Origin: a virus
Lineage: Duplodnaviria; Caudoviricetes
Virus record (IMG/VR): IMGVR_UViG_3300021964_008614
Span: 1 to 56,986 of that record
Reading direction: 5' to 3' (one strand)
Length of the DNA: 56,986 bases
In this document: positions 14,976-47,230 of the stretch, one piece after another
How the letters are laid out: each line of letters begins with the position of its first letter
Numbering within the stretch: position 1 is the stretch's first letter
Notes under the pieces: model-generated
Databases searched by the model: none
What the model saw: only the letters and a program-made list of their open reading frames with translations
What the model was told of the DNA's origin: nothing
Position numbers and translations under genes: made by a program

Positions 14976-14983
14976 TATTTATT
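14976..14983 (-). promoter_or_regulatory. T4-type late promoter (AATAAATA)
   Basis: Overlaps the stop codon of the giant gene, upstream of 14958. Confidence 0.55.
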
Positions 14984-20900: not shown

Positions 20901-23900
20901 ATCAGTGCTTACTGCTACAGATTCGCCATAATTAATATCTGCTAAGGGCGAATCAATCATTTGATCAAATACGTAATGTCCTAATAATGATTTTCTATAG
21001 ATTACTAATTTTCTTGTTGCTATTGAACTATCAACTGTATCACCATATTTTACAATCGTTGCTAAAACATCGCCTGTAAAACTTACATCAAACTGTGTTC
21101 CAAACTCGTATAAATTTTCTGTTTCAATTGCACTATCTGTTCCTGTAATGAATCCGGTATTATTTGGCAAAAATCCATTAAGGTCAACACCTGTTAAAAT
21201 TTGTTCCCAATCATTTACATTAAAAGTGCCTGCAATCAGATTTGTTTTTGCTTGATATACTTGATTGTTTATTTTAACATATTCACCTTCAAAATATGAT
21301 ACATTTACTTGAAAGTCGCCTCTGTAATTATCATCAGCACCAAGTTTCCAACCTCCACTTGCTGTCCAATTTAAAATATTAATTCTTCCAGGTTGATCAA
21401 AAGTGCCATTTCCTTTACTTAATATATAAGCAGAGTATGTATTGTTTGTATGGCTTACTATTTTTATTTCACTTCCAAGATATCTATCTGCTTCGACATC
21501 TGGTGTTACATATATGTTTTCTAATGTATAAAAATTACTTGCGTTTCTCTGATAAACTGCATAAGCACCTTGACGTTGTAATCCGCTTGAAGTACCATTG
21601 GTATCGGCTGGAATATTATAAACACGTTGCCAGTCATTGTTTGTTTTTGCAGGAGGGTTTGCATCTCTTGCGATTCCATCCAATAGAATTGATTTGTAAA
21701 CCCAATATTCAAAACCTTGTAATGTACGACTTGTACCTCTCGGAAGATTAACTCCCCTGTCAACAACTACAATAAATCCTGCTGTAGTTGATTGTAAGTT
21801 TACAGTATCAGTTGTACCTATAAGACGAAGTACTCCTTGTCCTTGTGATCCCCCAACAATACTTGCACTTGAAATTGCTCCATTGATGTTCCCCAACTTC
21901 CATGTGCCTGTAACATTTTTTACCCACACTCGTAAATCATTAAAAGTTTTTTCAACATATGTTACTTCTGCTGTTGCAAGTGTATCATTGTCTTGAATTG
22001 TATCTCCAACTATCGGAACAAACGGATTACCATAATTAGGATTGTAATCCGGATCTCCTGGTGTCGGTGATCCTCTGTCGTCAAAGTTTGTAAGATTAAT
22101 TTCAATCCAGCCGTCCCATAGATCATTAATTGTGTGTTCTGTATTATTCAAATAGTCGTGTGTGATAACACTTGAAATAACGCTTGGGTCCTGTAGTATT
22201 CCGTCTGTATTTCTATATTCGTTAAAGAAGAAATTAAAAGTTTCTCCTACTGCTAAATTATTATCCAATGACCTTGGTGCTCTAAATACCCATTTATCTG
22301 CAATCTCATCACCGTTGTCGCCGGTATAAGTTAATGTTTCAATATAAGAGGTAATTGTAGGTGATGTTTGCGGATCAGTAATCCTTAAAACATTTTCATA
22401 ATAGTTTGGTGTTCTACTTACTCCTGCTTGAATTACATCTTGTATTACAAGGTATGGCTTAGTTTCAATTGTTGCTGTTGATTGGAATGTGCCACCAACA
22501 TCAATTTTCCACCAACCACCCAGTGCTTCATCGTCTTGTTCTACTGCTCTTTCGTATGCACCTATTGAAATATCTCCAACAAATAAATTTCCTGTTGATT
22601 CAAAGTCACCGTTTGCATCTTTAATATAAATTAATGTTCTATTATCGCCAGTTGTGTATCTAAATGCAACAACACCAACTGCTGTTGAACTTGAAATAAC
22701 ATCGTTAACACTTGGAATAGCCTGTGTATTATCTACTAATAAGATATCATCGATTTTTTCTGTAATAGTGTGATTACCATCAAAGAATTGTTTATTAAGT
22801 GTTGGATCACCATTAAACGGTTGTACGCCGCTTGGATATCTTGTGTTGATATCGTTCCAAAATAATTGCAAAGAATCTCCCGGAGTTGTAGCAACATAGG
22901 CAAGTCTTGGCGCTCTAATTAATACATGATCTGTAGTTTCTTCTTGGAATAAGAAGTTGCCTCTTAAGATGTAATAGATATTATCATATTGTTGAGTTTC
23001 AGCATCATACGTTCCAATTAAATGTCTTATGTGGGAACTAAAACTTTGAAAATCTAAACTTGGATCTGTAGGCTCTATAATGTTTTTAGCCTTCCAATAT
23101 TGATTAGTATACTTTACAATTTCGTCTTTCTGATAAACTTGTCCTGAATTAAATTGTCCTTTATATTTTGTTTTGACATTTGAAGCATATGGTAAGCCTA
23201 CAAAAAGCCATTTTGCATCTGAACTCAATGCTGTTGCTCTTCCAAAACTATTTTCTCCATCTAAGAAGTTTATAGGACAATCAATTGTCTGGGCTAATAC
23301 CAGTCTGATATTTTCTCCTGGTCTAAAGTGTACATCAACTCTACCGTTTACTGTTGATGATGGTGAACCTACTGCTACAGTCGTATTATTTGCATTAGAA
23401 CTAATACTTGTTCCAAATGCTCTTTGGTCTGTACCCAACAATCCTTCTACTGTACTGTTGTAGATTGTTTGTTCTAATCTATGTGCATTAGTATTTTCTA
23501 CAACCGTCCATCTATTATTTTCATCGTAATCAACCCAAACACGTTCCTGAGTTGAATAGTTATCTCTTGTAATTTTTTCGTTAACATCTGTAAGTGTTTG
23601 TACGCGAGAACTTACAAGTTTTAAAATAAATCCGTCTACTTCTGTAGCATCTTCAACTTCGCCAGTAGTTTCTGCATAGATAACATTTAAACTTACTCTT
23701 AATACTTTATAAAATCTATTTTGTTTTTCGCCTACACCTAATATACCAATAATGTCATCTTTATCAACTGTTGGTGCTTTACGTGTTTTAATTTCAATTG
23801 ATTTAGAACTGTCACTATTAACAATATCTGTGACCTTCATTTCTGTTTCAGTTTGGCGTAATACGTCCCAAGTTTGACCTTTTTGTGCAACCCAAATATA

Positions 23901-26900
23901 TTGTCCTATTTCAACTTGATTTAGATCTAAATCAAGAATATCATTGTAGTTTTTTACTTTATAATCAATATCTTCTTCAGCAACATATCCTGCGGTCTTA
24001 ATATAAGTGTCATTCTCATCAATATACTTTGTTGGAAATGGCTTGTGATCGTAGTTCGATGGTTTACTATAGACATCTACCGGAGTATATCTATAAACCA
24101 AATCTGTTGATTGAGGATTGATCGTTTGTACCAACTGGAATGGTTGCGGACTTAATCTAAATTTTGATTCGTCAATTTCGTATTCTACTTCTTCAAACGA
24201 TTCACTTGCTCCATACTGTCCTACTTTAAATGCCCAATCTTCAAAAAATTCTAAACTTGAATTTTCTGTATTTGAAAGTGCATCAAATAGTTTTTCTAAT
24301 GAATTTTTTGTACCTTTGTCTTGAATAAACCCTTGATAAAATTTATATTGTGAAACATCATCATTAATAATATTTTCTAAATATGTACGTTTTTGATATC
24401 CAATTAAATGTTGTGCAAGTCTTTGTTGTTCACTGTCGAAATTATCAGTATCTAAATCATAAAAGTCTGCAAATTGATTTGCTTTATAATCAAAATTAGG
24501 AATTAATCCCGCAGTAGGTTTTTGATTTAAAATATACCACTCATCTTCATTAAAAGTTGTTGTTCCTGTAATTTTTTGTTTTGCACTGTAGTATCTTGTT
24601 TTGTAATAAACTACATCTGCAATATCATAATCTGTATTTTGTGTCCAGTCCTTAACATTTACATCGTCAAGAGTAAATCCTGGAATATTTACGCTCCCGT
24701 TCCAATCAGTACTACGATATCCAAGTACTCTAACCCTTGCTTGTCTATATCCAGGTGCAGGATTATAAATTGTATCATTAAAGACAGTTTTGTTGTCAAG
24801 TAAACAAACATGCTCTTTTTGTACAAGTGGTAATTTAACAAAATAAATTCCGTCTGCTGTATTTTTTAATGTTAATCCAAATTCGTTTTGACTACTTCTA
24901 ATAGTGTTAGCAAAATCTTCTTGAAGTTTTTGTCCATCTGCTTTAAGCAGGGTGTAGTCGTAGAAGTTATCAAATAAATTATCAACAACTACGTAGTCTC
25001 TACTAAATTGTAAATTTATTGCACTTGGAGAAAGTGTTAATAATGCACCTTCATTCCAGTTTTGTGTAGTCCAGAATAAAAATTCTCTTGCACTTAGTTC
25101 CCAATTCTCAATTGTTTCTATAGCCTGGTTAAACTTTTCAAAATTAAATCCTTGCGATTCTAAATATTTTCCATACCCGAGCAAAAAGTCTACCACTTCT
25201 TGATACGTTCTAAACAATGTACCGTAGTTTAATTTAGATGTATCTTCTTCGAATGTTCTACGTAGTATAGCATCTTTGCCGCCTTCAATTGGTAATTCTA
25301 CAAGTTTTACAAAGTTATCTGTAGAAAATGTATCAAATGTACCACTAACTTTTACTCTAAAGAAACTATCACCGAATCTAACAATTTGATCTTTTTGGTA
25401 ACGCTGTCCTGCTTCCCATTCAAGAAATGACTCGCTAACGCCGCCTATATTAATAACAGGATCCTTTGCACGTTCTAAATGTTTATAATAATCAAAGTAA
25501 GGTTTAGATTTATCATAACCTCTTACTAAGAAACCTGCCGCACGTTTTTCAATTATAACTCCGCTATAAGTTACTGTGTCAACGGGTGAACTTGTGTTTA
25601 AAAATAGTTTATAATTTTCTTCAGGAATAAACACGTTGCCTTTATTGTTAGGTGTACGCGAATCTAATATTAGTCTAAATTTATCTTTTGTACTAAATCC
25701 TCCAACCTTAAATCCAAGTTGAATTTTTAAATTTTTTATTTCTTTACTATATTCTTCATTTAATTTAGTTACATCTGCATTGATATAATTAAAGATGTAA
25801 TTTACTATTCCAGCAGTAGTAATTCTTACAGAACTTTCTGATGTATTAGGAAAGATAAGACTATCTAATTTAATTCTTTTGTTATTTCCTGTGTATACTA
25901 TTTGACCTGCATTATTACGTTTAATACGAGAACGATCAAATCCTAATCCAATCACTTTAGCAGGCTGATGAATCATCCAAGCAGTTATATATGCAAAGGC
26001 ATATTCTGATGATCTACGCCATGCTGTCTCTGTTGGTGCTTCGTCACCGAATACAAAATTATTATTTGTTTGCGGAACAATTAATCCTTGAGCGTATCCT
26101 GATTCATAAGGACTTAGTAACACACCCTGTGAATTTACAGGAATATGTTTTAATAAATCTTTTCGTGCGTAATTAGGGCGGTATCTAACTGGATTTCCTG
26201 GTTCACGAACTCTACCTTCTTGCAAGTCTTCCCAAAGAATTAAGTTTTCTTTTGTATAAGGTGCTGGACCATAAACTGTTTCCCACCAGTCTGGTTGGTC
26301 AATGTAGCCTAATATTTTCCAAGGTGTAGTATGAGGACTGTCAGTTCCTAAGTACTGCTTGTAAATTGCTCTCCAAAACCCGGGTAATTTTTCATTATAC
26401 GGATCTACCATAAAACTGTAATTCCAAGTAAATGAATTATCTCTATCATAAAAACTTGTATCTGTATAATCAGGATCACCTGCAATAGATAACCATTCTG
26501 CAAAATCAGTTATGATTATGTCGTCTAAGTCTTTATTTGTAAATCCAGTATCGCGTGACTTATGCCCTACAAAACTATCTACATCAAAAATATCTTTGTC
26601 ATATGTGACTTTTATATTATTGTAAATTCTTTTTTCTAATTCCAGTATTAAATCATCCCTGTAATCGCCATATGCTTTAATAATACTTCCATCATGTCCT
26701 TTAATAACTTGTTGCGGAGTTTGATATGTGTTATCAGTATATTTTACAGGAATATGTAGTGGCCATAAACCTAATTTTGTAGGAGTTGGCGGAATATACG
26801 ATGCATCTGTTGACTCGTATTCGTAAATATCAATTATATCGTTAACTGTTAAAGTAATTTTATCAGTTATTTGAATAAAACCTTCGGTGGTAAAAATATA

Positions 26901-29858
26901 ATCTCTGTTATGTATCAATTGCTGATCATTTAGATAAACATAAACTGCTTTTGCAGAAACTGTTTTTAAATCAAATGGCTCAGTAAGACTATAAAATTTA
27001 TTTCCTATATCAACAACTGTAAATGAACGTTTGTTACTTGCTCCATTACCAATCATATCTGTCCAATAGAACGCTGTTTGCTTAGATTTTTCTGACTTCC
27101 ATTTTTGTAAGGTTTTATCAACAAGATATCTTGCTTCGCCATCAATGCCTAAATCTGTTGCTATCGAAATAAATGCTCTTTTAAACTTAGCATATTCTTT
27201 TCTTGCAAAGCGTAATGCTTTTACTGAATTATATTTCTTGTTGGTAATATGATATGATGCAAGAGAAATAGGACCACTATGCTGTACAAACTTTGTACCA
27301 AATTCTGATAGTTGACCTAAGTTACGTAGATTACTACTACCTGGATATTTTCCTTCAAATCCTGATACATTTTCAATAATAGTAGTTACATGATCAGCAA
27401 CTTCACCGTATGTAAAATCGTTTATATTTTCATTAAGCGGATTGTGTTCTAAGTTTATAGGAAATGCATAATGACCGTTGTTGTTTTTATCTGCCTCACT
27501 TGTACAATGTAAAATTATATTATCATTATTTGCAAGATTACTTGTAAATGTAATGTATGCTATTCCGTTTTCTCTGTTGATTTCCCAATCAGTTCTACGT
27601 TCATTGTTAACAAATACCTTAACATCAAGGTTGTTAAGATCGCCGCTTCTATCATAAACATCTACAGCAAAATTATTACGTTGTCCTGAAACAACATATT
27701 GTCTAATTACTTTTTGTTTACTATCTGCTATTGCTTTTTTCCAACCACTTACACTCTTATAAGAAGTTAAATCAGTATACTTTCTTAAAGTTGCAATATC
27801 GGTTTTTTGTGAAAAATTCACTTGGCCTTGAGTATATGTAAATTCTTCATTTAAAAGATTAAAGTTAAAAACGATATCGCCACTGTTTTCAATGTTTCTA
27901 TATGTTAGCGGAAAGCCTAAGACGCTGTCGTTTGCTCCCGAACCTTGTTTATAAGAAAATAGTTTATTACCAATAAACGAATTACTTGCATATGTTGAAA
28001 AAGAATTATCATCTGCATCATATAAATCAAACAATGGTGCTTGGTTGGCTGTAAGTTTATCTTGTGCTTTTTGCCATTTAGTACCATCATACCAATAAAT
28101 TTTACCTTGATTTGTTGTACCATTTCGAACAAGAACTGTTTCATTTGTTTGAGGCTCAGTATCTGTTTCTTCTTGCAGAGAAATTTGTCTTGTGCCAAGA
28201 TGATTAATAAAGTTGACTTTGTAAATTCTACCATTGACTCTGATATCAGGATCTGCTGTAAACAATACACGTTGTCCGTCAATTAAATCTACACCGTCAA
28301 TATTATAACCTATTGATCCTTCAATAATTGAAAATACATCAATTGTTTTGTCGTCAATTAGATCTACATTAGATTTAAATTTTGATCCATAATTATATAA
28401 TCTTAATCCTGCATCAAATTCTATAATAGGTCTTTTTGCACGTTGGCTCTGATCAAACTCTGTAGGTGTTCCGTTTGCCTTTGCAACTTTTTCAATAACG
28501 TCTCTATGAAACCACCTGTTGTGTCTGGACCATTGATTACCGTCAATCGCCGCACGGTTGATTGTAATATAATCTTGTTCTTTTGGATAATTTAATGCTT
28601 GTCCGAATGGTAGTTTATCAAAGTTTTCAGTATCAAAAGGTATAAACAGATTAGAACTATATGCTCCAGTGATTTCTAAATCTGCTTTACTAATAAGTTT
28701 AATACTGTCACCAACTCCTTCTACATACCAAGTGCCTTCTCCATATTTTGCAGGAGTAACATCTCCAAGAAATTCAACAAGCATACCATTTGATAAGTCG
28801 GTGTCGGTTCTTGTTGTGTAAGTTTTCTTTTGTAGTATTTCTTCTTCTACATTAATTTCAGTATTTTCTAAGATGTTATACATTAATATAGTACCACTTG
28901 TATTAACATCATTTTTACTAATGTAAAATAATCTGTCTGGTGCGTTTAACGGCACTGTAAATTTTAGTGTTCCCTTCTCTACAAATACTGTTGCGGATTC
29001 AACTCCGTCTGTATATAATGTAGATATGTTATCGCCTTCTGTGAATCCTTCGATACCACCTTCCACAGGTTCTACTATGTATTCACCAGTGTCGTATCCA
29101 TCGCTGTCAAAAAGTTCTGACTCAAACTTACCAGGAGCCAACACCCCTTCTACTGTTTCAGTAATAATTGCTTGACCAGGGGTAAAGGCTCTGTTTGTTG
29201 CGAATGCAATAGGATGTCCCGGACAATCAATTTCAAATATGTAAGTTTGACCTTTGTATAGTTTTAAAGTAGGATTTTGTGTTAAACCTGTTGGCGTAAA
29301 CTTGTAGGCTACGTTGTCATCATTTTCCTCCAATGATACTTTAAATGTTGAAACTATCTCTTTAGATTGTCCAAAAATAGATAATATTTGGGGACCAGAA
29401 GGTAACCAATAGTATTCTCTAAAATTAACAAACTTGTCCCAATCAATATGCGGATTCCATGCATAGTATTCTTGTGCATTAATTTTGCTATGATCTTTGT
29501 TTGTATTTCCAAATGAACGTAATTGATTAATATAATCATTATAGTCTTTATAATATGTTACGTTGTCTATATCATCTTTAAGGACCAATGCTGGTTCTAA
29601 TTGATAATCTTCTCTTGTCTTAGTTACATCGCCGACATAATTATCATCGGCGGCATACGCTTTAGCATCTTTTCTGCCGTAATATGCATTAAGTTTTTCA
29701 ACCACACCTGGTTGAATAAGTTGATCAAGCGTACTTGTTAAAAACTTTTTGTTTGCCGGTGTTCTAAAATAACGAGGTAGATGACTTAGGCTGGTTCTTT
29801 TTTCATTTTCACCATCTGGATTAATCGGAAACTCGTTTTGATCATTGTCATAAGCCAT
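14979..29858 (-). CDS. Giant (4959 aa) virion structural protein, probable baseplate wedge/adhesin
   Basis: Uninterrupted 14.9-kb ORF immediately downstream of the gp6-like gene. It contains FG-GAP-like propeller repeats, GxGY repeats and repeated G(D/N)G...F beta-sandwich units. Confidence 0.75.
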   Translation of the reverse strand: MAYDNDQNEFPINPDGENEKRTSLSHLPRYFRTPANKKFLTSTLDQLIQPGVVEKLNAYYGRKDAKAYAADDNYVGDVTKTREDYQLEPALVLKDDIDNVTYYKDYNDYINQLRSFGNTNKDHSKINAQEYYAWNPHIDWDKFVNFREYYWLPSGPQILSIFGQSKEIVSTFKVSLEENDDNVAYKFTPTGLTQNPTLKLYKGQTYIFEIDCPGHPIAFATNRAFTPGQAIITETVEGVLAPGKFESELFDSDGYDTGEYIVEPVEGGIEGFTEGDNISTLYTDGVESATVFVEKGTLKFTVPLNAPDRLFYISKNDVNTSGTILMYNILENTEINVEEEILQKKTYTTRTDTDLSNGMLVEFLGDVTPAKYGEGTWYVEGVGDSIKLISKADLEITGAYSSNLFIPFDTENFDKLPFGQALNYPKEQDYITINRAAIDGNQWSRHNRWFHRDVIEKVAKANGTPTEFDQSQRAKRPIIEFDAGLRLYNYGSKFKSNVDLIDDKTIDVFSIIEGSIGYNIDGVDLIDGQRVLFTADPDIRVNGRIYKVNFINHLGTRQISLQEETDTEPQTNETVLVRNGTTNQGKIYWYDGTKWQKAQDKLTANQAPLFDLYDADDNSFSTYASNSFIGNKLFSYKQGSGANDSVLGFPLTYRNIENSGDIVFNFNLLNEEFTYTQGQVNFSQKTDIATLRKYTDLTSYKSVSGWKKAIADSKQKVIRQYVVSGQRNNFAVDVYDRSGDLNNLDVKVFVNNERRTDWEINRENGIAYITFTSNLANNDNIILHCTSEADKNNNGHYAFPINLEHNPLNENINDFTYGEVADHVTTIIENVSGFEGKYPGSSNLRNLGQLSEFGTKFVQHSGPISLASYHITNKKYNSVKALRFARKEYAKFKRAFISIATDLGIDGEARYLVDKTLQKWKSEKSKQTAFYWTDMIGNGASNKRSFTVVDIGNKFYSLTEPFDLKTVSAKAVYVYLNDQQLIHNRDYIFTTEGFIQITDKITLTVNDIIDIYEYESTDASYIPPTPTKLGLWPLHIPVKYTDNTYQTPQQVIKGHDGSIIKAYGDYRDDLILELEKRIYNNIKVTYDKDIFDVDSFVGHKSRDTGFTNKDLDDIIITDFAEWLSIAGDPDYTDTSFYDRDNSFTWNYSFMVDPYNEKLPGFWRAIYKQYLGTDSPHTTPWKILGYIDQPDWWETVYGPAPYTKENLILWEDLQEGRVREPGNPVRYRPNYARKDLLKHIPVNSQGVLLSPYESGYAQGLIVPQTNNNFVFGDEAPTETAWRRSSEYAFAYITAWMIHQPAKVIGLGFDRSRIKRNNAGQIVYTGNNKRIKLDSLIFPNTSESSVRITTAGIVNYIFNYINADVTKLNEEYSKEIKNLKIQLGFKVGGFSTKDKFRLILDSRTPNNKGNVFIPEENYKLFLNTSSPVDTVTYSGVIIEKRAAGFLVRGYDKSKPYFDYYKHLERAKDPVINIGGVSESFLEWEAGQRYQKDQIVRFGDSFFRVKVSGTFDTFSTDNFVKLVELPIEGGKDAILRRTFEEDTSKLNYGTLFRTYQEVVDFLLGYGKYLESQGFNFEKFNQAIETIENWELSAREFLFWTTQNWNEGALLTLSPSAINLQFSRDYVVVDNLFDNFYDYTLLKADGQKLQEDFANTIRSSQNEFGLTLKNTADGIYFVKLPLVQKEHVCLLDNKTVFNDTIYNPAPGYRQARVRVLGYRSTDWNGSVNIPGFTLDDVNVKDWTQNTDYDIADVVYYKTRYYSAKQKITGTTTFNEDEWYILNQKPTAGLIPNFDYKANQFADFYDLDTDNFDSEQQRLAQHLIGYQKRTYLENIINDDVSQYKFYQGFIQDKGTKNSLEKLFDALSNTENSSLEFFEDWAFKVGQYGASESFEEVEYEIDESKFRLSPQPFQLVQTINPQSTDLVYRYTPVDVYSKPSNYDHKPFPTKYIDENDTYIKTAGYVAEEDIDYKVKNYNDILDLDLNQVEIGQYIWVAQKGQTWDVLRQTETEMKVTDIVNSDSSKSIEIKTRKAPTVDKDDIIGILGVGEKQNRFYKVLRVSLNVIYAETTGEVEDATEVDGFILKLVSSRVQTLTDVNEKITRDNYSTQERVWVDYDENNRWTVVENTNAHRLEQTIYNSTVEGLLGTDQRAFGTSISSNANNTTVAVGSPSSTVNGRVDVHFRPGENIRLVLAQTIDCPINFLDGENSFGRATALSSDAKWLFVGLPYASNVKTKYKGQFNSGQVYQKDEIVKYTNQYWKAKNIIEPTDPSLDFQSFSSHIRHLIGTYDAETQQYDNIYYILRGNFLFQEETTDHVLIRAPRLAYVATTPGDSLQLFWNDINTRYPSGVQPFNGDPTLNKQFFDGNHTITEKIDDILLVDNTQAIPSVNDVISSSTAVGVVAFRYTTGDNRTLIYIKDANGDFESTGNLFVGDISIGAYERAVEQDDEALGGWWKIDVGGTFQSTATIETKPYLVIQDVIQAGVSRTPNYYENVLRITDPQTSPTITSYIETLTYTGDNGDEIADKWVFRAPRSLDNNLAVGETFNFFFNEYRNTDGILQDPSVISSVITHDYLNNTEHTINDLWDGWIEINLTNFDDRGSPTPGDPDYNPNYGNPFVPIVGDTIQDNDTLATAEVTYVEKTFNDLRVWVKNVTGTWKLGNINGAISSASIVGGSQGQGVLRLIGTTDTVNLQSTTAGFIVVVDRGVNLPRGTSRTLQGFEYWVYKSILLDGIARDANPPAKTNNDWQRVYNIPADTNGTSSGLQRQGAYAVYQRNASNFYTLENIYVTPDVEADRYLGSEIKIVSHTNNTYSAYILSKGNGTFDQPGRINILNWTASGGWKLGADDNYRGDFQVNVSYFEGEYVKINNQVYQAKTNLIAGTFNVNDWEQILTGVDLNGFLPNNTGFITGTDSAIETENLYEFGTQFDVSFTGDVLATIVKYGDTVDSSIATRKLVIYRKSLLGHYVFDQMIDSPLADINYGESVAVSTDGKFIAVGAPNYSAKYSNEGTVFIYEQVDGRFTQVQHLTGPKGLPNEKFGTVVKYDNDRIVVHSAGGDLFSNTNFDTGTTVFDNGTTYFTSTLVDTGEVFVFELLGNRYVYSDKLEFADRKTLYFGKTMLLKGNHIYVCLPQYKRDSNNAQGALLDYRVKLNSKLWERKRNARPLVDVEKIKGITIYNKDTKTVEEYLDYIDPLQGKIAGQAEVELSFKTSFDPATYNNAETTLVNKDTTHFTAKEMVGKLWWDTDAVRFINPYSNTGNIFNVSNTMNTIFPGTEVEVYEWVESKISPEVWDNQADSEEGLALGISGTTKYGMNAYCTKRIYDEPAQKFTTYYYFWVRNKKTVPDVPGRTISSSDVQELIRDPSAQGYKYISLLSNNEWTAHNLESTIKGLSTVLKFSYWTIGNIEKNIHNQYRIITDGLETSVPKSDFERKWYDSLIGYDEQGREVPDRFLGEKERYGILNTPRQTMFVNRVEALKQLVERVNSVLIKNIIIDDFDLSDLTSNDPIPTVASRRYDVQIDSNAELEFVAVGRVRRATLSATIQDGKILRVDITNPGRGYKTVPTIKINSATGEGAEVRLEINNVGAVTSASIVNSGTNYQQSDTITVRNFTVLTTVDASFANKWSLYEYQGGINPWNRVASQRYDVQPYWNYADWYTTGYNNLTKADYIIDETYELESLADTFGDIVKINSVGSGGWLLLRKIDDQANVDYTVNYETIGRQNATIQLSKSIYDYSNETVGFDSFGYDDNAFDLQPVDELRIILETLRDKILIDNLAVHYNELFFAQMRYVLAEQPFVDWMFKTSFVKAKHNIGALRKDVTFNNDFLESYEAYTNEVKPYKTKIREYLSTYEGTDNSQTMVTDFDLPAVYDEQAGRILPQNVVVQNNELKVASNVINSYPFKHWLDNASYQITGINIADAGSGYENAPGVEFVGGGGTGAKATAYVGGGKITEIKIDNPGTGYLGAPSVVLNGSTADGGRVAKVSSVIGNTNLRTTHMNVKFDRVTGTFFITTLDEIENFVGSGSKFTYKLKWPADVRTDKIKITVGDLEILPSRYTIENIEDSVGRTHKRKIAQITFDTPPANNLNIKIEYKKDISLLTAADRINLFYNPQTGMIANDLGQLLDGIDYGGVQVKSFNFGGGSGWDADEWFTSAYDTYDNTYEDEVFRLGDDSTKVYDFAQPLETGITYNVYKNGTRIDDPNYPSNPTNPDALIPSIIGAGQTGFILTDDGTEVESTVIKFDEEVVSTQSGDVIVIRKNTSDGSFIPDPRAYDTIVTGGDLAYSTATGLNPEDINIDGDGFVTPTTSKGPEELVPGQVLDTLDIKVYDRVGEGGSIIESVSYVANGTATTYKFTGLPQTNDAIFVKVNNVIVSDYTVNYKNKELTFTTAPANNSRINIVTMSGNGEGILDMDTFDGDGSTLQFVTQVDWKENLSSIVTVNGEKVNYILETTDSSYDTANKTVISFGAPPTDNAVINYAIYASEAQTFSEIKTDNLVADGSSASYELSITPFSSLPASHNLIVKVGDNILNAGYNEKFTIDNRIEYQLRNWQQPGGTLGADDIIVLLNGRQLTYTSDFIFRPANSSVEIFENVAQQGDKLEIFVTTDGEYTVSGNTLTLDTVPTENTLISVTHFSNHDIQQIDRKNYDIVTRTTVQFESAGDIEYNHLLAGLIRLQRPTIDAEYVWVILNGKLQTPSVDYKVTNDKLFVRMAQPLDANDVIELIQFAEDGPTVSKFGYRQFKDMLNRTVYKRLGDSNSYRLAKDLKIFDKEIIVDDASKMFVPEKESNTPGVLFINGERIEYFVKDGNSLQQLRRGTMGTGVKEIHNVGDQLFDQGFQQTVPYQDQTLVNTYNGDGCTKTFNLDWEPDSVNEFEVFVGGRRLRKTAILTFDPTVDQDSPEGDVTAPAEFSISSPNILTITTAPADGVRITIVRKIGKIWNEPGKTLGKTENAIAQFLRAEEVDLPK

Positions 29859-39225: not shown

Positions 39226-40059
39226 GTGAAAAGAGTAAATTATTTAAACAACAAGGACATATTGTCCGAGATACACAAGTCAAAGAGCAGTTTTTGCAGT
39301 TTTGTAGATTCAGACTATCATCAATTTGATATTATTTTACCAAGCATAGACAAAATTAACGTAAGAACAATAGCAGAAGCAAAAAGAAACAAAGCAAAAA
39401 GATTAGGAGATGCAGATTATGCCGCAAGAAAATTAGCAGGCGAAAAAGTTAAACAAGCAGAGTGTGCTGTTGACTACAGAAAGATCACAAAAGAGGAACT
39501 TATTTTCCGTGTAATGACATTTGATCATATTCCTGAAGAAAAGGGTCGTAAGAAAAATCCTAAAACTATAGCAGATACAAAAATAAAATTAAACTTTCCT
39601 CCATTCCAGCATTTTAAATTTAACGAAAACGACGAACTTGTATGTGTAGGCAAAAGTCATTGGGAAGGCGGAATGGAAAACGGTTCTTTTAATCTAAGCG
39701 GTGGTAAAGCAACTGAAAAACTTGCTCGCATGTGGATGAAACTTTGTGATCGTTATGCAACAAGAGGAAATGTACGTGGATACACCTACAATGACGAGAT
39801 GCGAGGTCAAGCAATTCTTCAACTTACACAGATTGGACTACAATTTGATGAAAGCAAATCACAAAACCCATTTGCATACTACACTGCGGCAGTTACAAAT
39901 TCATTTGTAAGAGTTATTAACATTGAAAAGCGTAATCAAAATATTAGAGACGATATTCTTGAAATGAACGACATGACTCCAAGTTACACACGCCAAAGTC
40001 AAGGCGAATGGGAAAGACAAGTAGAAGAACAACGCAAAAAAATGGCAAGTGGCAAATAA
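39226..40059 (+). CDS. Late-transcription sigma factor, T4 gp55-like
   Basis: NYLNNKD at the N-terminus, N.RGYTYNDEM and FDESKSQNPFAYYT..V.NSFVR.I..EK. GTG start with GGAG. Confidence 0.85.
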   Translation: MKRVNYLNNKDILSEIHKSKSSFCSFVDSDYHQFDIILPSIDKINVRTIAEAKRNKAKRLGDADYAARKLAGEKVKQAECAVDYRKITKEELIFRVMTFDHIPEEKGRKKNPKTIADTKIKLNFPPFQHFKFNENDELVCVGKSHWEGGMENGSFNLSGGKATEKLARMWMKLCDRYATRGNVRGYTYNDEMRGQAILQLTQIGLQFDESKSQNPFAYYTAAVTNSFVRVINIEKRNQNIRDDILEMNDMTPSYTRQSQGEWERQVEEQRKKMASGK

Positions 40060-41127: not shown

Positions 41128-42897
41128 ATGCTGATTAAAGACCTAACTGTAAAAAACTTTATGAGTGTGGGAAATCAAACCCAGGCTGTAGACTTTAGCA
41201 ATAGACAATTAACGCTTGTACTTGGTGAAAACCTTGATCAAGGAGGCGATGATAGTGGCTCCCGAAACGGAACTGGTAAGACCACTATCATTAACGCCCT
41301 TTCATATGCACTATACGGCCAAGCACTAACAAATATTCGCAGAAATAATCTAATTAATAAAACCAACGGCAAAGGTATGTTGGTTACACTTAACTTCGAA
41401 AAAAACGGAACAAAATATCGAGTTGAGCGAGGACGTAGTCCTAACGTTTTAAAGTTTTTTATTAACGAAGAAGAAAAAGAAATCACAGACGAATCACAAG
41501 GTGACTCAAGAGAAACTCAAAAAGAAATTGATAGTCTGTTACAGATGAGTCACGAGATGTTTAAGCACTTGGTTGCATTAAACACATACACAGAGCCCTT
41601 CTTAAGTTTAAAACCCAACGATCAACGTGCTATTATTGAGCAACTATTAGGTATTACCATACTATCCGAAAAGGCTGAACAACTTAAAATAAAACAAAAA
41701 GAAGTGCGTGACGGAATTACCGAAGAAACTGCAAGAATAAATGGGATACAAACTGCAAACGAAAAAGTAAAAGAGACAATTGATAGTTTAAAGGTAAAGT
41801 CAAGTGCGTGGAGACAACAGAATGCTAAAGATTGTGAACGCTTACAAAATGGTATTGACGAATTAGAACACTTAGATATCGATGAAGAAATAAGAAATCA
41901 CGAGTTACTATCTGCTTGGGAAGAAAACGACAAGCACAAGCGTAATTTAGAAAAAGAACGTGCTACACTTGAAAGTGCGTTAAGTCAGACAGACAGACAG
42001 ATTACTAAAATTGGAAAAGAATTAAATGATCTTAATGATGCAAAGTGTCATGCTTGTGGACAAGAGTTACACGAAGAGAAAAAACAAGAAATAAACAATA
42101 AACTTCAAGAAGAGTATGGCGAAACAATGACATACTTAATGGAAATTAATACAAAATTTGAAAAGGTTGCAAATAAATTAAGTGAGTTAGGAGATTTAGA
42201 TTCTAAGCCAAGTACATTTTATGAAACTGCTAAAGAAGCATACGATCATCGAAGCAATGTTGAAAATTTAAAACAAGCACTTAAGGCTAAAGAAACAGAA
42301 AACGATCCATACGTTGATCAAATCGAAGAACTTGAACACACTGCTATACAAGAAGTAAACTGGGATACCGTGAATGACCTTACGCTGATGCAAGAACATC
42401 AAGGTTTCTTGTATAAGTTACTTACAAATAAAGATTCCTTTATACGTAAAAAAATTATTGAACAAAACCTTGCATATCTAAACAATAGATTAACATTCTA
42501 CTTAGACAAAATTGGTTTGCCACACACTGTAGTATTTCAAAATGATTTATCTGTGATGATCACCCAGTTAGGACAGGACCTCGACTTTGATAATTTAAGT
42601 AGGGGTGAGCGTAACAGACTAATACTTGGTTTATCATTTGCGTTTAGAGATGTTTGGGAAAGTTTGTATCAAAATATCAACTTACTATTTGTTGACGAAT
42701 TAATTGACAGTGGAATGGACACCGCGGGTGTTGAGCATAGTTTGGCTATCCTCAAGAAAATGGGTAGAGAACGTAAAAAGAACATTTATTTGATTTCACA
42801 CAAAGACGAACTGCAAGGTCGTGTACAAAACGTACTTAAGGTTGTAAAAGAAAACGGCTTTACCAGTTATGCAAACGATATTGATATTGTACAATGA
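41128..42897 (+). CDS. Recombination ATPase subunit, gp46/Rad50/SbcC-like
   Basis: KNFMSVGN, Walker A NGTGKTT, coiled coil with zinc hook CHAC, signature LSRGE, Walker B LLFVDE and ISH. Confidence 0.93.
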   Translation: MLIKDLTVKNFMSVGNQTQAVDFSNRQLTLVLGENLDQGGDDSGSRNGTGKTTIINALSYALYGQALTNIRRNNLINKTNGKGMLVTLNFEKNGTKYRVERGRSPNVLKFFINEEEKEITDESQGDSRETQKEIDSLLQMSHEMFKHLVALNTYTEPFLSLKPNDQRAIIEQLLGITILSEKAEQLKIKQKEVRDGITEETARINGIQTANEKVKETIDSLKVKSSAWRQQNAKDCERLQNGIDELEHLDIDEEIRNHELLSAWEENDKHKRNLEKERATLESALSQTDRQITKIGKELNDLNDAKCHACGQELHEEKKQEINNKLQEEYGETMTYLMEINTKFEKVANKLSELGDLDSKPSTFYETAKEAYDHRSNVENLKQALKAKETENDPYVDQIEELEHTAIQEVNWDTVNDLTLMQEHQGFLYKLLTNKDSFIRKKIIEQNLAYLNNRLTFYLDKIGLPHTVVFQNDLSVMITQLGQDLDFDNLSRGERNRLILGLSFAFRDVWESLYQNINLLFVDELIDSGMDTAGVEHSLAILKKMGRERKKNIYLISHKDELQGRVQNVLKVVKENGFTSYANDIDIVQ

Positions 42898-43100
42898 GCA
42901 TAATAGACGACACACACGACAAATTAACCAAAGCATATTTAGAATATTTCAAAGCAAACGAACGTTTTGAAAAAAATGGGGGTCTAAGAACCATGCAGGA
43001 CGCTCGAAAATGGCTCAGAACTATTCGCACTCTCGCTAAATTACGTGGAGACGAAATTAAAAAGGCATACGATTCCAATAAAGACACCAAGGCAAAGTAG
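42894..43100 (+). CDS. Hypothetical protein
   Basis: 68-aa basic helical ORF coupled to the gp46-like gene by an ATGA overlap. Confidence 0.7.
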   Translation: MSIIDDTHDKLTKAYLEYFKANERFEKNGGLRTMQDARKWLRTIRTLAKLRGDEIKKAYDSNKDTKAK

Positions 43101-43118: not shown

Positions 43119-43544
43119 ATGCAATGGACTTATCAAGGACAAGAAGTAAAAGAAATCCCAGAAGGCATAGAAGGCTTTGTCTATTTGATTACCAATACAA
43201 CTAATAATCGCAAGTATGTAGGCAAAAAACTCGCAAAATTTAAAAAAACACGCCCACCTTTAAAAGGCAAGAAAAACAAAAGACGTAGCAAAGTAGAGTC
43301 AGACTGGAGAGACTATTGGGGATCTTCAGATCACTTGCTTGAGGACGTACAAAATTTAGGCCCAGAAAATTTTACAAGAGAAATTTTACACTATTGTGAA
43401 AGCAGAGGCGTATTAAGTTATCTCGAAGCCAAAGAACAATTCGATAGACGTGTATTAGAAACTGACGAATATTACAACGGCATTATTAATGTACGTGTAG
43501 GCAGTTCGAAAGTTTTGAAAGAAGCGTTAAAAAATATAAAATAG
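43119..43544 (+). CDS. Stand-alone GIY-YIG endonuclease (T4 EndoII/Seg-like)
   Basis: GFVYLITN...RKYVGKK, YWGSS, FTREIL, conserved Glu (YLEAKEQF) and YYN; single catalytic domain of 141 aa. Confidence 0.85.
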   Translation: MQWTYQGQEVKEIPEGIEGFVYLITNTTNNRKYVGKKLAKFKKTRPPLKGKKNKRRSKVESDWRDYWGSSDHLLEDVQNLGPENFTREILHYCESRGVLSYLEAKEQFDRRVLETDEYYNGIINVRVGSSKVLKEALKNIK

Positions 43545-43549
43545 GCAAA

Positions 43550-43915
43550 AATATAGCAACATTGTTTGGTCGAGGAGGCTCGACTCATCTTGAGGATATG
43601 TGAAATACCATATTCAGATACTGGTGCGTTGCAAGGATAATGCTAACTTAAGGCATAAAAGATGTATGCTCTGTGAAAAAGATACAACATACGCGGCAAG
43701 TGTTTTTGCACTGTTAAGGAACAACTGCCGTCCGTGGATACTGCGAATGCTGAAGTAAGGGGTTGACGATCTACCGCCTCTGTACATACTATATGTAATC
43801 TTCTTTAACAGTGTGGTGATGCTAACTCACATGATGTGAAACCACTCAGTTCGTCCGGCAACGGGCGAATTGTGGCTCAACTATCTACATGATGCTAAAT
43901 TGCTTCGCAATTATT
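43550..43915 (+). ncRNA. Candidate large structured non-coding RNA, family not recognised
   Basis: ORF-free and more GC-rich than its flanks, with at least 8 hairpins. Includes an 11-bp stem with two G-U pairs closed by a GCAA tetraloop (43847-43872) and a 14-bp long-range pairing of 43708-43721 with 43801-43814. Boundaries are approximate. Confidence 0.6.
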
Positions 43916-43945
43916 GTTTAAGAAATAAGTGTTTGAGCGATAGCG

Positions 43946-43971
43946 AAAACAAGATGTGCTTTAGCACATCT
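43946..43971 (-). terminator. Intrinsic terminator for the two small minus-strand genes
   Basis: Perfect inverted repeat AGATGTGCT-TT-AGCACATCT (43952-43971) followed on the minus strand by TGTTTT, 10 nt past the stop at 43982. Confidence 0.6.
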
Positions 43972-43981
43972 ACTAAGAATG

Positions 43982-44170
43982 TTAACTACTTAAATCTTTA
44001 AGATAATCATTAGGTCGAAGTTTAACTTCGGTATTAATCTGATTCTTTGTTCCGGTATTATGTTTTGCAACAATTTCACTACCCTGTGTAAAATAAAATC
44101 CTAATGATTCTGCTTTTTCCATAAAATCAAGAAAAGCGGACTCTAATTCAACAACTTCTTTTTTATTCAT
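43982..44170 (-). CDS. Hypothetical protein
   Basis: 62-aa ORF starting 2 nt after the upstream stop. Confidence 0.6.
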   Translation of the reverse strand: MNKKEVVELESAFLDFMEKAESLGFYFTQGSEIVAKHNTGTKNQINTEVKLRPNDYLKDLSS

Positions 44171-44172
44171 GA

Positions 44173-44355
44173 TTAATCATACAAGTCTGGATCTCTGCCT
44201 AAACCTTTTGGTCTCGGAGGGTGTACTTCCAGTACTTCGTATTCCTCGTGGGGGTTAACATTTTTAAAGTTGCTCACAATTTCAAATGCTTCTGCTTCTG
44301 TAGAGCATTTGACGATTTCTCGTTTTGCAACCACTATATAAGAGTTAGTACTCAT
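44173..44355 (-). CDS. Hypothetical protein
   Basis: 60-aa ORF ending GLGRDPDLYD, with TAAATA 7 nt upstream. Confidence 0.6.
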   Translation of the reverse strand: MSTNSYIVVAKREIVKCSTEAEAFEIVSNFKNVNPHEEYEVLEVHPPRPKGLGRDPDLYD

Positions 44356-44420: not shown

Positions 44421-45023
44421 ATGAAAATTTCACAAGTTGTAGTTGAATCCAAAAAACAAACCACAAATGAGGCTCCTGTAGGCGGTATTAAGCAGGGTCT
44501 TACTAAGTTTGGTGCCAAAGCGGCCGCTAAATTAGGTGCAAAAAACACTGCATTAGGACTTGCAGGCAAAGCAGATACAGGCGACGAAGCAAACAAATTA
44601 CGTGGTGAATTCCAAAATTACATGGGAACAACAGGTCAAAGCATGGGTAAAATCGATGCATCAGAGTTGACTGCATGGTTGAAATCTAAAAAATATCCAA
44701 CAAATTCAGTTCCACCACAAGGTGTTCTTAACAAAAAACAATTAGACGATATTCTTTTAAAAACTGTACAGGCTTCTAAAAAAGTAGGTGGCGGTGCCGG
44801 CGGTGCAGTAGGTGCCGATGCAAATGCTAAACAAACAACTACAAATACTGGAAAAGTAGATAAATCAACAGCAACAGGTAGTTCAACAGCACAGACTGGT
44901 GAAGCACCACCAACACAAAACGGAAGTGCCGGTGGACCTGCTACAGAAGTTCCACCAAACATTCAAGCACAACTTGATTTGCTAAATGCACCTGATAAAA
45001 AAAGATTGGCGGCTTTACTGTAA
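44421..45023 (+). CDS. Hypothetical virion protein (candidate internal head protein)
   Basis: Late promoter upstream; N-terminus MKISQVVVE...NEAP; Ala/Gly/Lys-rich. Confidence 0.6.
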   Translation: MKISQVVVESKKQTTNEAPVGGIKQGLTKFGAKAAAKLGAKNTALGLAGKADTGDEANKLRGEFQNYMGTTGQSMGKIDASELTAWLKSKKYPTNSVPPQGVLNKKQLDDILLKTVQASKKVGGGAGGAVGADANAKQTTTNTGKVDKSTATGSSTAQTGEAPPTQNGSAGGPATEVPPNIQAQLDLLNAPDKKRLAALL

Positions 45024-47230
45024 TGAAACTATACGAACTTAACACACCAAACAACAGAACTTCACAAATACTAACAGAAGGTTACCAGGACCTTACTGAA
45101 ACACAAAAGATTTATCTTAACAGATGGGAACGTGAACTTTGGCCATTACTTGAAGAATATACAAAACTTGCAGAAGCAGAATTAACTGCTGACCAAATTC
45201 AGGATATCTTTAAAGGTGCAGAAGAACGTGCTATGGCCAGCGGCGACAACAAAACTGTTGCAGGCAAAGTAGGCGCAGGTGTAGCGGCGGCCGCAAAACT
45301 TCCTGTAGATATTGCAAAAGCAGTTGACAAAAAAATTAACGAACTTGGTAGACTTGCACAAAACGCTGGACCAGTTAAAAATGCAGATGCTAAGTTTGAA
45401 GAACTTAAAAAGAAAATTAGTGCAGAAAATTCGGATTCAAAAATTGTACAAGGCATACAAAAAGTAAGCGACTGGGCAAAAGAAAATCCAGGCAAGGCAA
45501 GTATTGCTGTAGGTATCTTAACAACTATTGCGGCGTTTGCGGGCGGTCCTGCAGGTGGTGCCGCGGCAGGTTTGATTCTACGTGCTTCAAAAGATTTATT
45601 ACAAGGTGAAAAATTATCAACAGCAGTTGGTAAGTCAGTTAAAACAGCGGCATATGGTGCTCTTGCTGGTTTAGCAATCAGAGGCTTAACAGATGCTATG
45701 GTTGACAATATCGCAACAGGCAGTGAAGCCGAAGCAAATGCAATGATGGACGGTTTTGAAAAAGCCAACTTTAAAGCGGCTGTAGATAGTGCGGCGGCAG
45801 AAGCAGGTCTTGATGCAGGTGTGCTTGATGGTGCTATGAACTATAGCAGTCAAGGAAACATCAACGGTTTCTTTTACAATTACAATTTTACAATGACTGC
45901 TGATCAAGTTTCAGAGTATAAAAATTTGTTATCTGCAACGCAGAGTGCAAAAGTTTTCAGTCCAGAATATTATGAAGCGGCAGGTAGGTTACACGGTTTC
46001 TTAGCAACAGCACAACAAGCCAACTCAGATTTAACTGCACTTGCACGAACAATAGCAGACATTCCAAAAGACATGCTTACAGGTGATCAGATGGATGCGG
46101 CAATCGCTGTGCTTGACAATGCAGATGCGGCAATTGAAAAAGTTATGGATATCGGCGGCGGAGCGGCCGCGGCGGCTCAAGGTGCTCTTGCTACAGTTGA
46201 TGATAGCAATAAAGAAATGCACAAGGTCAAACCAATTGATCCAAAAGAAAAAGAACAACTGGAATTAAGTTTAAAAGGTGGCGGTGAAGCAAAAGCAGAA
46301 TCAATTGACTACGAAACTTCTTACAAATATTTGTTAGAACAATATCTTGCAGAAGCAGATCCAGCACAACAAGAATTACCATTAGACAATCCTAATACAC
46401 TTGGTGCAAAAGCAAAACGTGGTTTAGGAAATATTGCAAGTAAAGTAGGCGGAGCAGTTAAAGATGCGGCAGGCAAAGCAGTCAAAGGTGTTAAACAAGT
46501 CGCTAAAGATGTAGGAAACAAAGTAACTGCAAATAAACTAAACAAAAAGTGGAAAGAAATGGGAGAGCCTACAGATGCAGGAACAGTAGCATTTATCCTA
46601 CAAGATGCAGGCATGACTAACGATGACATTTCAGCACTTGCACAAGAAAAGAAAGTAGATTTGCCAGCACCTACAGCACAAGCAGATAGTACTACAGATA
46701 CAGATACAGCACAAGCAGATGGCGGCTCTAACGCTGATACAGCGTCAACAAGCGGTGGTCAAGGAGCAAGTGGTAGTGCAGGAGCATCAGCCGGCGAAAG
46801 ACGTGCTACTAAAGACGAAATTGCCAAGTGGGTAAGAAAAGATGCACCGCTTGTTGATCCTAAAAATCCAGCCGCAGACGGAGCCATTGAAGCAGATAGA
46901 GATGGCAGAAACATTGGACTTGTGAGACAGGCCAATGGTGCAGATCATATCTGGGTAGGTCAGTCATGGACAAACATGACTACTGGAAAGCCTGTTAGTG
47001 CAGACACACAAGGGTTAGGAAGACCAGATCTTGAAGAACTTGCTAAAGAAATTCAAAAAGCAAATGTTGCTAAACTTGTAAAAGATCAATTAACATCTCC
47101 TGGTATACAAGCAGGTACTAAAGACGCTCAGACTGCAAAAGTAACCAAAACAATGACCAGTAAGACTGCAGGGCAACGTGCTGGAACAAAGTTCCAAAAC
47201 ACAAGCAATCAAGGCACTACCGTTCAATAA
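45023..47230 (+). CDS. Hypothetical virion protein (candidate internal/ejection protein)
   Basis: 735-aa Ala-rich helical ORF with hydrophobic Gly/Ala segments, coupled to the upstream gene by TAATG. Confidence 0.6.
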   Translation: MKLYELNTPNNRTSQILTEGYQDLTETQKIYLNRWERELWPLLEEYTKLAEAELTADQIQDIFKGAEERAMASGDNKTVAGKVGAGVAAAAKLPVDIAKAVDKKINELGRLAQNAGPVKNADAKFEELKKKISAENSDSKIVQGIQKVSDWAKENPGKASIAVGILTTIAAFAGGPAGGAAAGLILRASKDLLQGEKLSTAVGKSVKTAAYGALAGLAIRGLTDAMVDNIATGSEAEANAMMDGFEKANFKAAVDSAAAEAGLDAGVLDGAMNYSSQGNINGFFYNYNFTMTADQVSEYKNLLSATQSAKVFSPEYYEAAGRLHGFLATAQQANSDLTALARTIADIPKDMLTGDQMDAAIAVLDNADAAIEKVMDIGGGAAAAAQGALATVDDSNKEMHKVKPIDPKEKEQLELSLKGGGEAKAESIDYETSYKYLLEQYLAEADPAQQELPLDNPNTLGAKAKRGLGNIASKVGGAVKDAAGKAVKGVKQVAKDVGNKVTANKLNKKWKEMGEPTDAGTVAFILQDAGMTNDDISALAQEKKVDLPAPTAQADSTTDTDTAQADGGSNADTASTSGGQGASGSAGASAGERRATKDEIAKWVRKDAPLVDPKNPAADGAIEADRDGRNIGLVRQANGADHIWVGQSWTNMTTGKPVSADTQGLGRPDLEELAKEIQKANVAKLVKDQLTSPGIQAGTKDAQTAKVTKTMTSKTAGQRAGTKFQNTSNQGTTVQ

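Follow-up and report, generated by a model that had tools for sequence, protein, structure and literature searches.

Genomic locus of the RNA

The DNA analysed here (the window) comprises positions 1 to 56,986 of IMG/VR virus record IMGVR_UViG_3300021964_008614, a Caudoviricetes viral contig with completeness rated at 15%, and the element under study is a large structured RNA predicted on its + strand, directly downstream of a gene for a GIY-YIG nuclease. The interval in question, a 437-nucleotide (nt) stretch at 43545-43981, is bounded by the stops of two convergent open reading frames (ORFs), the GIY-YIG gene on the + strand and an ORF of 62 amino acids (aa) on the - strand, with only spurious ORFs of at most 57 aa inside it. 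The initial annotation of the window had singled out this stretch as its only long ORF-free interval and as densely packed with stems, and all ten stems that it named are present in the sequence. The guanine-cytosine (GC) content of the RNA is 41%, compared with 35% for the window.

Upstream of the GIY-YIG gene and on the same strand lie genes for a gp55-like late sigma factor, a gp47-like phosphoesterase and a gp46-like Rad50 ATPase, followed by a 68-aa ORF, and the order gp55 late sigma, gp47, gp46, small ORF, GIY-YIG and RNA is that of the clade. The GIY-YIG protein is a bare 141-aa catalytic domain with a lysine/arginine-rich insert, in which no DNA-binding domain was recognised. In relatives, the RNA is located between the GIY-YIG stop and the start of the next gene.

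Comparative evidence for a conserved fold

Sequence comparison identifies the segment as a real, structured and independently folding non-coding RNA of about 430 nt. The decisive alignment, A1, contains 61 sequences of the window-like type (subtype 1), and pair counts were made on its 51 distinct rows against a hand-built model of 107 pairs in 19 helices, two pseudoknots included; the RNA as a whole has about 15 helices besides the two pseudoknots. Standard pairs fill 94.6% of the 5373 pair cells, compared with 36-44% in controls whose partners were slid by 1-3 columns, and compensatory double changes occur at 55 of the 107 pairs, compared with 8-19 after sliding. The model has a covariation score of 0.408, a value that none of 500 shuffles attained and that compares with 0.05-0.09 for the slid models. 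A single measure points in the opposite direction, with 113 further pair types falling below the shuffled mean of 126.7, as is expected when pairing is constrained. Without reference to the hand model, RNAalifold arrived at 79 pairs and showed compensatory double changes at 35 of these, and an independent mutual-information scan placed the pseudoknot pairs at the head of its list. The conservation and covariation in related phages on which the initial reading depended are thus borne out.

The modelled pairs contain 628 G-U cells and 39 A-C cells, and pairing decreases from 94.6% to 83.6% when the alignment is read as the - strand, which together place the RNA on the + strand, the strand of the GIY-YIG gene, as had been proposed from G-U pairs and a GNRA loop. 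The folding energy of the single + strand sequence (-122.6 kcal/mol, z -2.87, with none of 100 shuffles as good; - strand z -1.78) is moderately better than that of shuffled controls and taken alone is suggestive only, the comparative evidence being decisive.

Architecture of the RNA

The features of the RNA and its immediate surroundings are collected in Table 1. In the 5' domain, P1-P4 are paired in 99.6-100% of cases, with 12 of 21 pairs showing compensatory changes, and the invariant parts are the junction UGUUUGG and an internal loop (UUGA / GA..CU). The lower pairing of P5 is depressed by a one-column MAFFT shift in one subgroup. P6 contributes two mutual-information pairs, 43666-43690 and 43667-43689. 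The loop of P7, 14-15 nt long, supplies the 5' strand of pseudoknot PK1, which contains four mutual-information pairs, all with 100% standard pairing, and whose 3' strand is directly continuous with the 3' strand of P8. PK2 contains the highest mutual-information pair of the entire alignment.

Table 1. Predicted features of the RNA and adjoining genes, in window coordinates.
Feature	Position	Strand	Description
Whole RNA	43543-43972	+	about 430 nt; limits from conservation in alignments
5' domain	43556-43632	+	three-way junction, P1-P4
P1	43556-60/43628-32	+	GCAAC/GTTGC
P2	43568-74/43579-85	+	GTCGAG/CTCGAC
P3	43586-89/43623-26	+	added by comparison
P4	43594-600/43609-15	+	GGATATG/CATATTC
P5 hairpin	43640-43656	+	loop with invariant CUAAC; 77.6% paired; 2/5 pairs compensatory
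P6 hairpin	43664-43692	+	encloses conserved CUGNGAAAAAG element; 3/5 pairs compensatory
P7 long hairpin	43695-43729	+	82.4% paired; 8/9 pairs compensatory
Pseudoknot PK1	43710-43718 (P7 loop) with 43804-43812	+	98.5% paired; 6/9 pairs compensatory
Pseudoknot PK2	43734-43739 with 43769-43774 (P9 loop)	+	100% paired; 3/6 pairs compensatory
P8	43752-55/43800-03	+	encloses P9 and P10; 100% paired; 3/4 pairs compensatory
P9	43758-63/43776-81	+	99.3% paired
P10 variable hairpin	43783-88/43792-97	+	inside P8
Motif A	43826-43836	+	CUCACAUGA(U/A)G; window reads CUCACAUGAUG; conserved as sequence, unpaired
P11 hairpin	43847-43872	+	11 base pairs (bp), GCAA loop
Motif B	43883-43894	+	AUCUACAUGA(U/A)G; window reads AUCUACAUGAUG; second ACAUGA about 58 nt after motif A
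P12 hairpin	43898-43912	+	AATTGC/GCAATT; subtype 2 form up to 12 bp with UUCG loop
P13	43931-43950	+	GUUUGAGCG-NNA-GCGAAAAC; tandem G-A; GNRA-like (GAUA) loop
P14 terminal hairpin	43952-43971	+	8 bp; 5/8 pairs compensatory
Promoter candidate	43515-43542	+	sigma-70-like TTGAAA, 16 nt, TAAAAT; 10/12 consensus matches; inside GIY-YIG ORF end
GIY-YIG gene	43119-43544	+	141-aa stand-alone SegE-type nuclease domain; Pfam PF19835, E 1.7e-35; phrog_447, E 3e-38
gp55-like late sigma factor gene	39226-40059	+	upstream of GIY-YIG gene
62-aa ORF	43982-44170	-	convergent with GIY-YIG gene

In the 3' domain, the letters of motif A are invariant in alignment A2, an invariance that the search pattern forced in part, and the motif is unique in the window. 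RNAalifold pairs the palindromic CAUG cores of motifs A and B, a position where covariation is impossible. P11 is replaced wholesale between relatives, by GGAACC/GGUUCC in subtype 2 and by GAUUCUG/CAGAAUC in locus L178. The strongest covariation in A2 is that of P12, with five pairs that are 97-100% standard and show 2-4 pair types each. An AU-rich linker leads from P12 to P13, which is near-invariant in both subtypes, shows a C-G to U-A exchange at one pair and is unique in the window.

Of the ten stems in the initial annotation, nine are kept with covariation in relatives, including ATGCT/GGCAT, GTATG/CATAC, CGGCA/TGCCG, TACATA/TATGTA and the 11-bp hairpin with the GCAA loop; the tenth, TCACA/TGTGA (43827-39), forms only in the close relatives of the window, its sequence being instead a conserved unpaired motif. 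The core of the pseudoknot proposed there stands as PK1, and its GGAA/TTCT extension belongs instead to P7 and P8. P3, P8, P9, P13, P14 and PK2 had been missed.

A third pseudoknot, between the 5' part of the P9 loop and a segment after P11, looked attractive between subtypes and was rejected, since subtype 1 variants break the pairing without compensation. Short ORFs starting from the two AUG-containing motifs were likewise discarded, their frame and length not being conserved in alignments of relatives. A search for antisense targets in the window gave four sites complementary to the ACAUGA motifs against six expected, two of the four being the motifs themselves. Variation in hairpin length was also observed. 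At P10, an additional hairpin of 30-45 nt is inserted in some copies of subtype 1, and the variable hairpin of subtype 2 reaches about 60 nt; like the P10 inserts, it marks a natural expansion site. Expansions of these kinds occur in loci L003, L004 and L138 (A1 columns 244-275), L125 and L131.

Distribution and subtypes of the family

The spread of the RNA was assessed on 80 loci retrieved through gp46, a sample not picked by RNA sequence. Among them, blastn found 11 full-length homologues with 70-81% nucleotide identity, whose gp46 proteins are 70-93% identical to that of the window. An invariant 20-mer from the alignment of these homologues has exact matches in 94 IMG/VR stretches, which yielded 60 further distinct untruncated copies and so the 61 sequences of A1. 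Most other gp46 loci retain the 3' third, their 5' two-thirds being unlike the window by blastn. A pattern of two ACAUGA motifs matched at least 119 IMG/VR stretches and four stretches from genome_contigs; two of these four (L275, L276) proved to be chance matches within bacterial coding DNA and were removed, and the other two are 335-kb and 153-kb contigs of one marine metagenome-assembled genome (MAG). In total, 155 distinct instances were collected, consisting of 70 of subtype 1, 79 of subtype 2 and six others, with 153 remaining after the two chance matches were dropped.

On the alignments, the RNA is a family of at least two subtypes with a common 3' core. Subtype 2 has a covarying core of its own, composed of a long-range helix, counterparts of P8 and P9, and a hairpin whose 20-nt loop is conserved; it builds P11 and P12 from other complementary sequences and has its 3' domain in common with subtype 1. 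A covariance model of the 3' domain (R1) finds exactly one match per locus in 100 of 100 further loci, with E values from 1e-29 to 2e-9. In the gp46-retrieved sample, it matches 49 of 80 loci, once each, and the remaining 31 contigs stop less than 700 nt past the GIY-YIG gene or before it, too short to judge; the RNA is therefore present in 49 of 49 judgeable gp46 loci. The family is modular, with 5' and central domains swapped between subtypes, peripheral hairpins of variable length and the 3' core held in common, a modularity typical of large functional RNAs.

The carriers of the RNA are a clade of uncultured marine T4-like large myophages. Their nearest cultured relatives by gp46 are the large myophages Sinorhizobium Phosso, Pseudomonas PA5oct and Agrobacterium Atu_ph07, at no more than 48% identity. 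The two MAG contigs with the phage RNA (L277, L278) belong to Candidatus Neomarinimicrobiota isolate RS350; they are probably phage contigs binned with the Neomarinimicrobiota MAG, or a hint of the host.

Representation in RNA libraries and promoter signals

Roughly one fifth of the words sampled from a 701-nt query were present in six metatranscriptome runs. Contigs were placed on the region for four runs, each from a different study, and contigs from all four cover parts of it, together spanning 43422-43976 in pieces; parts lacking contig cover are uninformative either way. In run X17, one contig of 361 nt covers 43543-43877 with about 96% identity and another, of 788 nt, ends on 43885-43976; in run X16, a contig of 150 nt covers 43804-43953 with 100% identity. 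A loose contig end in X17, at window position 43879, reads the subtype 2 sequence GGTTCCGTCTGACTGA, and both subtypes are therefore present in one RNA library.

A promoter candidate overlaps the end of the GIY-YIG ORF (Table 1), and in locus L247, one of those lacking a GIY-YIG gene, a promoter of the form TTGACA, 17 nt, CATTAT stands ahead of the RNA. The word TAGGCAAA was rejected as a promoter word, its 66 matches in the window showing no enrichment over the 68.6 expected, and the T4 late-promoter word TATAAATA occurs once in the window against 7.7 expected.

Proposed role of the RNA and cis-acting alternatives

The RNA probably functions as a discrete, structured molecule acting in trans. 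Its complex fold, invariant unpaired blocks, modular domains, presence once per locus and survival in new neighbourhoods suggest that it acts through its three-dimensional shape. By its distribution it has the status of a gene of its own, four true instances occurring without a GIY-YIG gene and in other neighbourhoods. The RNA would accumulate as a discrete stable species, produced from its own promoter in some genomes and by read-through from the GIY-YIG gene in others, with P13-P14 closing its 3' end. It would then act through its tertiary fold as the subunit or scaffold of a ribonucleoprotein (RNP) or as a self-assembling RNA, the contact or active surface being formed by the invariant unpaired blocks UGUUUGG, CUAAC, UAAAAGAU, GAAAAAG and the two ACAUGA motifs. 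The latter are palindromic and are candidate contact sites; in principle, the two invariant unpaired CAUG motifs could mediate self-association.

Within this trans-acting explanation, an RNP or self-assembling scaffold is most likely, ahead of a ribozyme. It is an outside prospect that the RNA founds a new class of large RNA, catalytic or associated with a nuclease, as either a ribozyme or a specificity or control subunit of the minimal GIY-YIG protein; as a ribozyme, its invariant unpaired blocks would constitute the active site, and as a nuclease subunit it would represent the first RNA-dependent GIY-YIG system.

Several observations weigh against a discrete trans-acting RNA. The contigs of runs X15 (43427-43599) and X19 (43422-43624) span the 3' end of the GIY-YIG gene into the RNA, which fits a long 3' untranslated region (UTR) as well, and the RNA-library data as a whole are assembled contigs that report presence only, with DNA carry-over possible, and carry no strand, ends or level. 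Only 17 of 153 instances have a canonical -35/-10 pair ahead of the RNA, compared with 1.8% at random positions. P14 has no U-run on the + strand, and no + strand terminator follows it. In many loci the next + strand genes follow immediately after the RNA, leaving room for a cis role there, and part of the sequence invariance of the 3' core was forced by the search patterns used, the 20-mer and the two-motif pattern.

One alternative is a cis element, whether a structured 3' UTR or terminator of a gp55-gp47-gp46-GIY operon, an insulator separating convergent units, or a leader of the two downstream proteins of 200 and 735 aa (p200/p735). Convergent genes flank the RNA in the window, contigs run on continuously from the GIY-YIG gene, and in many loci the following + strand gene begins 40-70 nt after the RNA. 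P14 also scores as a - strand terminator, owing to the conserved GAAAAC of P13; the hairpin is nevertheless retained in loci without a downstream - strand gene, and it accounts for at most 20 of the 430 nt. Against a cis element stand a length of about 430 nt, two covarying pseudoknots and many invariant unpaired blocks, which exceed the needs of termination. The RNA is moreover unchanged whether or not - strand genes are inserted before p200, it is kept in the wholly different neighbourhoods of L178, L247 and L260, and no riboswitch or leader in Rfam matches it. We therefore regard a cis element as unlikely.

Association with the GIY-YIG gene

In 135 of 141 evaluable instances the RNA has a GIY-YIG gene upstream of it, on its own strand, with the end of the gene 10-90 nt before the RNA; 15 more instances have too little upstream sequence. 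The gene is present in 79 of the 80 gp46 loci, the eightieth contig stopping about 200 bases past gp46, and it is therefore a fixed gene of the clade rather than a sporadic homing endonuclease. The six instances without it consist of the two chance matches and four true RNAs located elsewhere (L178, L196, L247 and L260), with no GIY-YIG gene within 1500 nt; in L178 the gene upstream of the RNA is on the opposite strand. The protein family itself occurs in 518 GenBank phage records, 339 of them from Synechococcus phages. In the OM43 phage Melnitz, a GIY-YIG gene 77% identical to that of the window is followed by a gap of only 150 nt, and the Melnitz genome has no match to the RNA, its sole weak hit to the 3'-domain model (E 0.096) lying inside the prohead protease gene. 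Many phage records and PHROGs label this family (phrog_447) 'NAD synthetase', Pfam assigning it to SegE-type GIY-YIG, and the label looks like a propagated error.

The RNA might serve as cofactor, guide or regulator of the adjacent minimal nuclease, forming an RNA-dependent nuclease module comparable to omega-RNA with IscB or TnpB. Beyond the close adjacency, the two RNA-library contigs joining gene and RNA agree with this proposal, as does a protein reduced to its catalytic domain and basic insert, and GIY-YIG similarity follows the type of the RNA 5' domain rather than gp46 similarity. Linkage by itself, however, accounts for such co-variation of neighbours. Obligate co-occurrence with the nuclease, as in guides of the omega-RNA type, was not found, the RNA occurring without the gene in four loci and the gene without the RNA, nearby or elsewhere, in Melnitz. 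The variable parts of the RNA are hairpins (P10, P12) or AU-rich linkers, and no hypervariable unpaired segment resembling a guide was seen. A nuclease partnership of this kind is accordingly doubtful. The tie implied in the initial annotation holds as adjacency and is weaker than adjacency suggests, the GIY-YIG gene being a fixed neighbour, and conserved synteny is the best reading of the arrangement, which may have begun with the arrival of a Seg-type nuclease next to a conserved RNA gene.

The T4 SegB homing endonuclease gene sits in a tRNA gene cluster, and in both cases a Seg-type GIY-YIG gene adjoins highly conserved RNA genes, a likeness which suggests that the nuclease became established next to a conserved RNA gene. 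In contrast to SegB, the GIY-YIG gene here is fixed in the clade rather than sporadic, and the RNA is not a tRNA. Likewise, HEARO and omega-RNAs share with the present RNA a pseudoknotted structure beside a small nuclease gene on the same strand, but here the nuclease is GIY-YIG rather than RuvC/HNH, no Rfam HEARO model matches, no guide-like variable end was seen, and RNA and nuclease each occur without the other.

Comparison with known RNAs and cultured phages

No model among the 4227 families of Rfam 15 reached its gathering score in the window, none matched at E<=10 over 43300-44300, and five subtype 2 loci searched at E<=1 gave nothing on the RNA and only two chance DicF matches elsewhere. 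ARAGORN found no transfer RNA (tRNA) or transfer-messenger RNA (tmRNA) in the window. As a positive control, the two-piece tmRNA of Melnitz was detected by RF01849 with 106.7 bits; phage tmRNAs are therefore detectable, and the RNA here is not a tmRNA. A tmRNA (RF00023, RF01849-51) was further rejected for want of a conserved short ORF after the AUG-containing motifs. A group I intron (RF00028) was rejected since Rfam gives no P3-P9 core match and no exons exist; the RNA lies outside any gene and is therefore not an intron. Bacterial RNase P RNA was set aside on the negative Rfam search and on a central core that is unlike between subtypes, and GOLLD, ROOL, HEARO, OLE and raiA because no Rfam covariance model matched in the window or the five subtype 2 loci. 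These results agree with the earlier exclusion of tRNA, tmRNA, RNase P and intron. That the RNA has diverged far from a known class (group I intron, RNase P RNA, tmRNA, GOLLD, ROOL or HEARO) to which it belongs is thus highly improbable despite the similar size, the pseudoknotted core and the two-piece tmRNA of related marine myophages, a catalytic core such as that of RNase P being one that would not tolerate the differences between subtypes.

It is also very unlikely that the RNA, beside the recombination genes, is the transcript of a replication origin or a primer. T4 origins use structured or R-loop transcripts, and the RNA adjoins gp46/gp47, but the GC-skew switch at about 38-39 kb follows gene orientation with no origin signal at the RNA, tertiary-structure covariation of this kind would be unexpected in a primer transcript, and no iterons or AT-rich unwinding element were noted in the RNA stretch or its alignment.

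The possibility raised initially that the RNA is undescribed is in keeping with the Rfam result and with full-text literature searches, which found no paper on the RNA, the supplementary motif tables of surveys lying outside their scope; the accessible text of a 2026 preprint on noncoding clusters makes no mention of phage or GIY-YIG. GOLLD and ROOL offer the closest resemblance in design, being large pseudoknotted phage-borne RNAs with variable peripheral hairpins around conserved cores. The RNA here differs in being shorter (about 430 nt), in lacking an Rfam-model match, in having no tRNA genes in the window and in belonging to marine T4-like myophages. GOLLD and ROOL are reported to form homo-oligomers (PMC12286853).

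Among cultured phages, blastn against GenBank phages gave no match for the region or a subtype 2 copy, and nhmmer profiles gave none on the gp46 loci of Phosso and PA5oct. The 3'-domain model, run on the whole records of Phosso, PA5oct, Atu_ph07, Vibrio phage 2.275.O and XbC2, had a best E value of 0.27, at the level of noise, so that the RNA was not found in the six cultured phages searched, these five and Melnitz. The published study of PA5oct reports four RNA-seq-defined non-coding RNAs, none at the gp46 locus (PMC7318152), one of which, ncRNA002, a 'putative lncRNA' (long non-coding RNA) of 451 nt, accounts for 1.2-5% of phage reads in the early, middle and late stages (PMC7318152). Its predicted fold is stable (z -4.05). 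It resembles the RNA in length and comes from a phage among the closest cultured relatives (gp46 47% identity); in contrast, it lies in the terminal repeat rather than beside gp46, the 3'-domain model finds nothing in it, and it has no comparative structure.

Unannotated gaps of 660-1014 nt occur 1-3 kb from gp46 in Phosso (L175, 8402-9415), XbC2 (L281, 6631-7398) and PA5oct (L176, about 8859-9521). They show no similarity among themselves or to the RNA and no credible Rfam match, and could hold analogous RNA genes.

Neighbouring genes

The basic 68-aa ORF between gp46 and the GIY-YIG gene (42894-43100, + strand) has no family match and is present in 78 of the 80 gp46-retrieved loci, the two exceptions being contigs that stop at this point. 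In L196, which has no GIY-YIG gene, the ORF again lies ahead of the RNA. Downstream of the RNA, the window encodes p200 and p735 at 44421-47230 on the + strand, two low-complexity proteins rich in alanine, glycine, threonine and lysine, without a Pfam or PHROG family and kept in this position in most relatives. At 14979-29858 on the - strand lies a single ORF of 4959 aa, whose product is presumably a giant structural protein, followed on the same strand by ORFs of 1158, 877, 698 and 693 aa.

Biological significance

The RNA represents a widespread class of large structured phage RNA that is apparently uncatalogued, as judged from its absence in Rfam 15 and in the literature covered by the full-text searches. 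The comparative support is unusually clear, and the two subtypes constitute natural swap experiments, making the RNA a ready target for cryo-electron microscopy and for assays of self-cleavage, binding and oligomerisation. The analysis also corrects the annotation of the locus: many phage records attach the name 'NAD synthetase' to the GIY-YIG neighbour, and the RNA region carries no annotation. To our knowledge, large RNAs with conserved tertiary structure are rare, and nearly all classes with a solved role are ribozymes, riboswitches or RNP cores. The RNA described here could expose a new RNA-based step in infection by abundant ocean phages.

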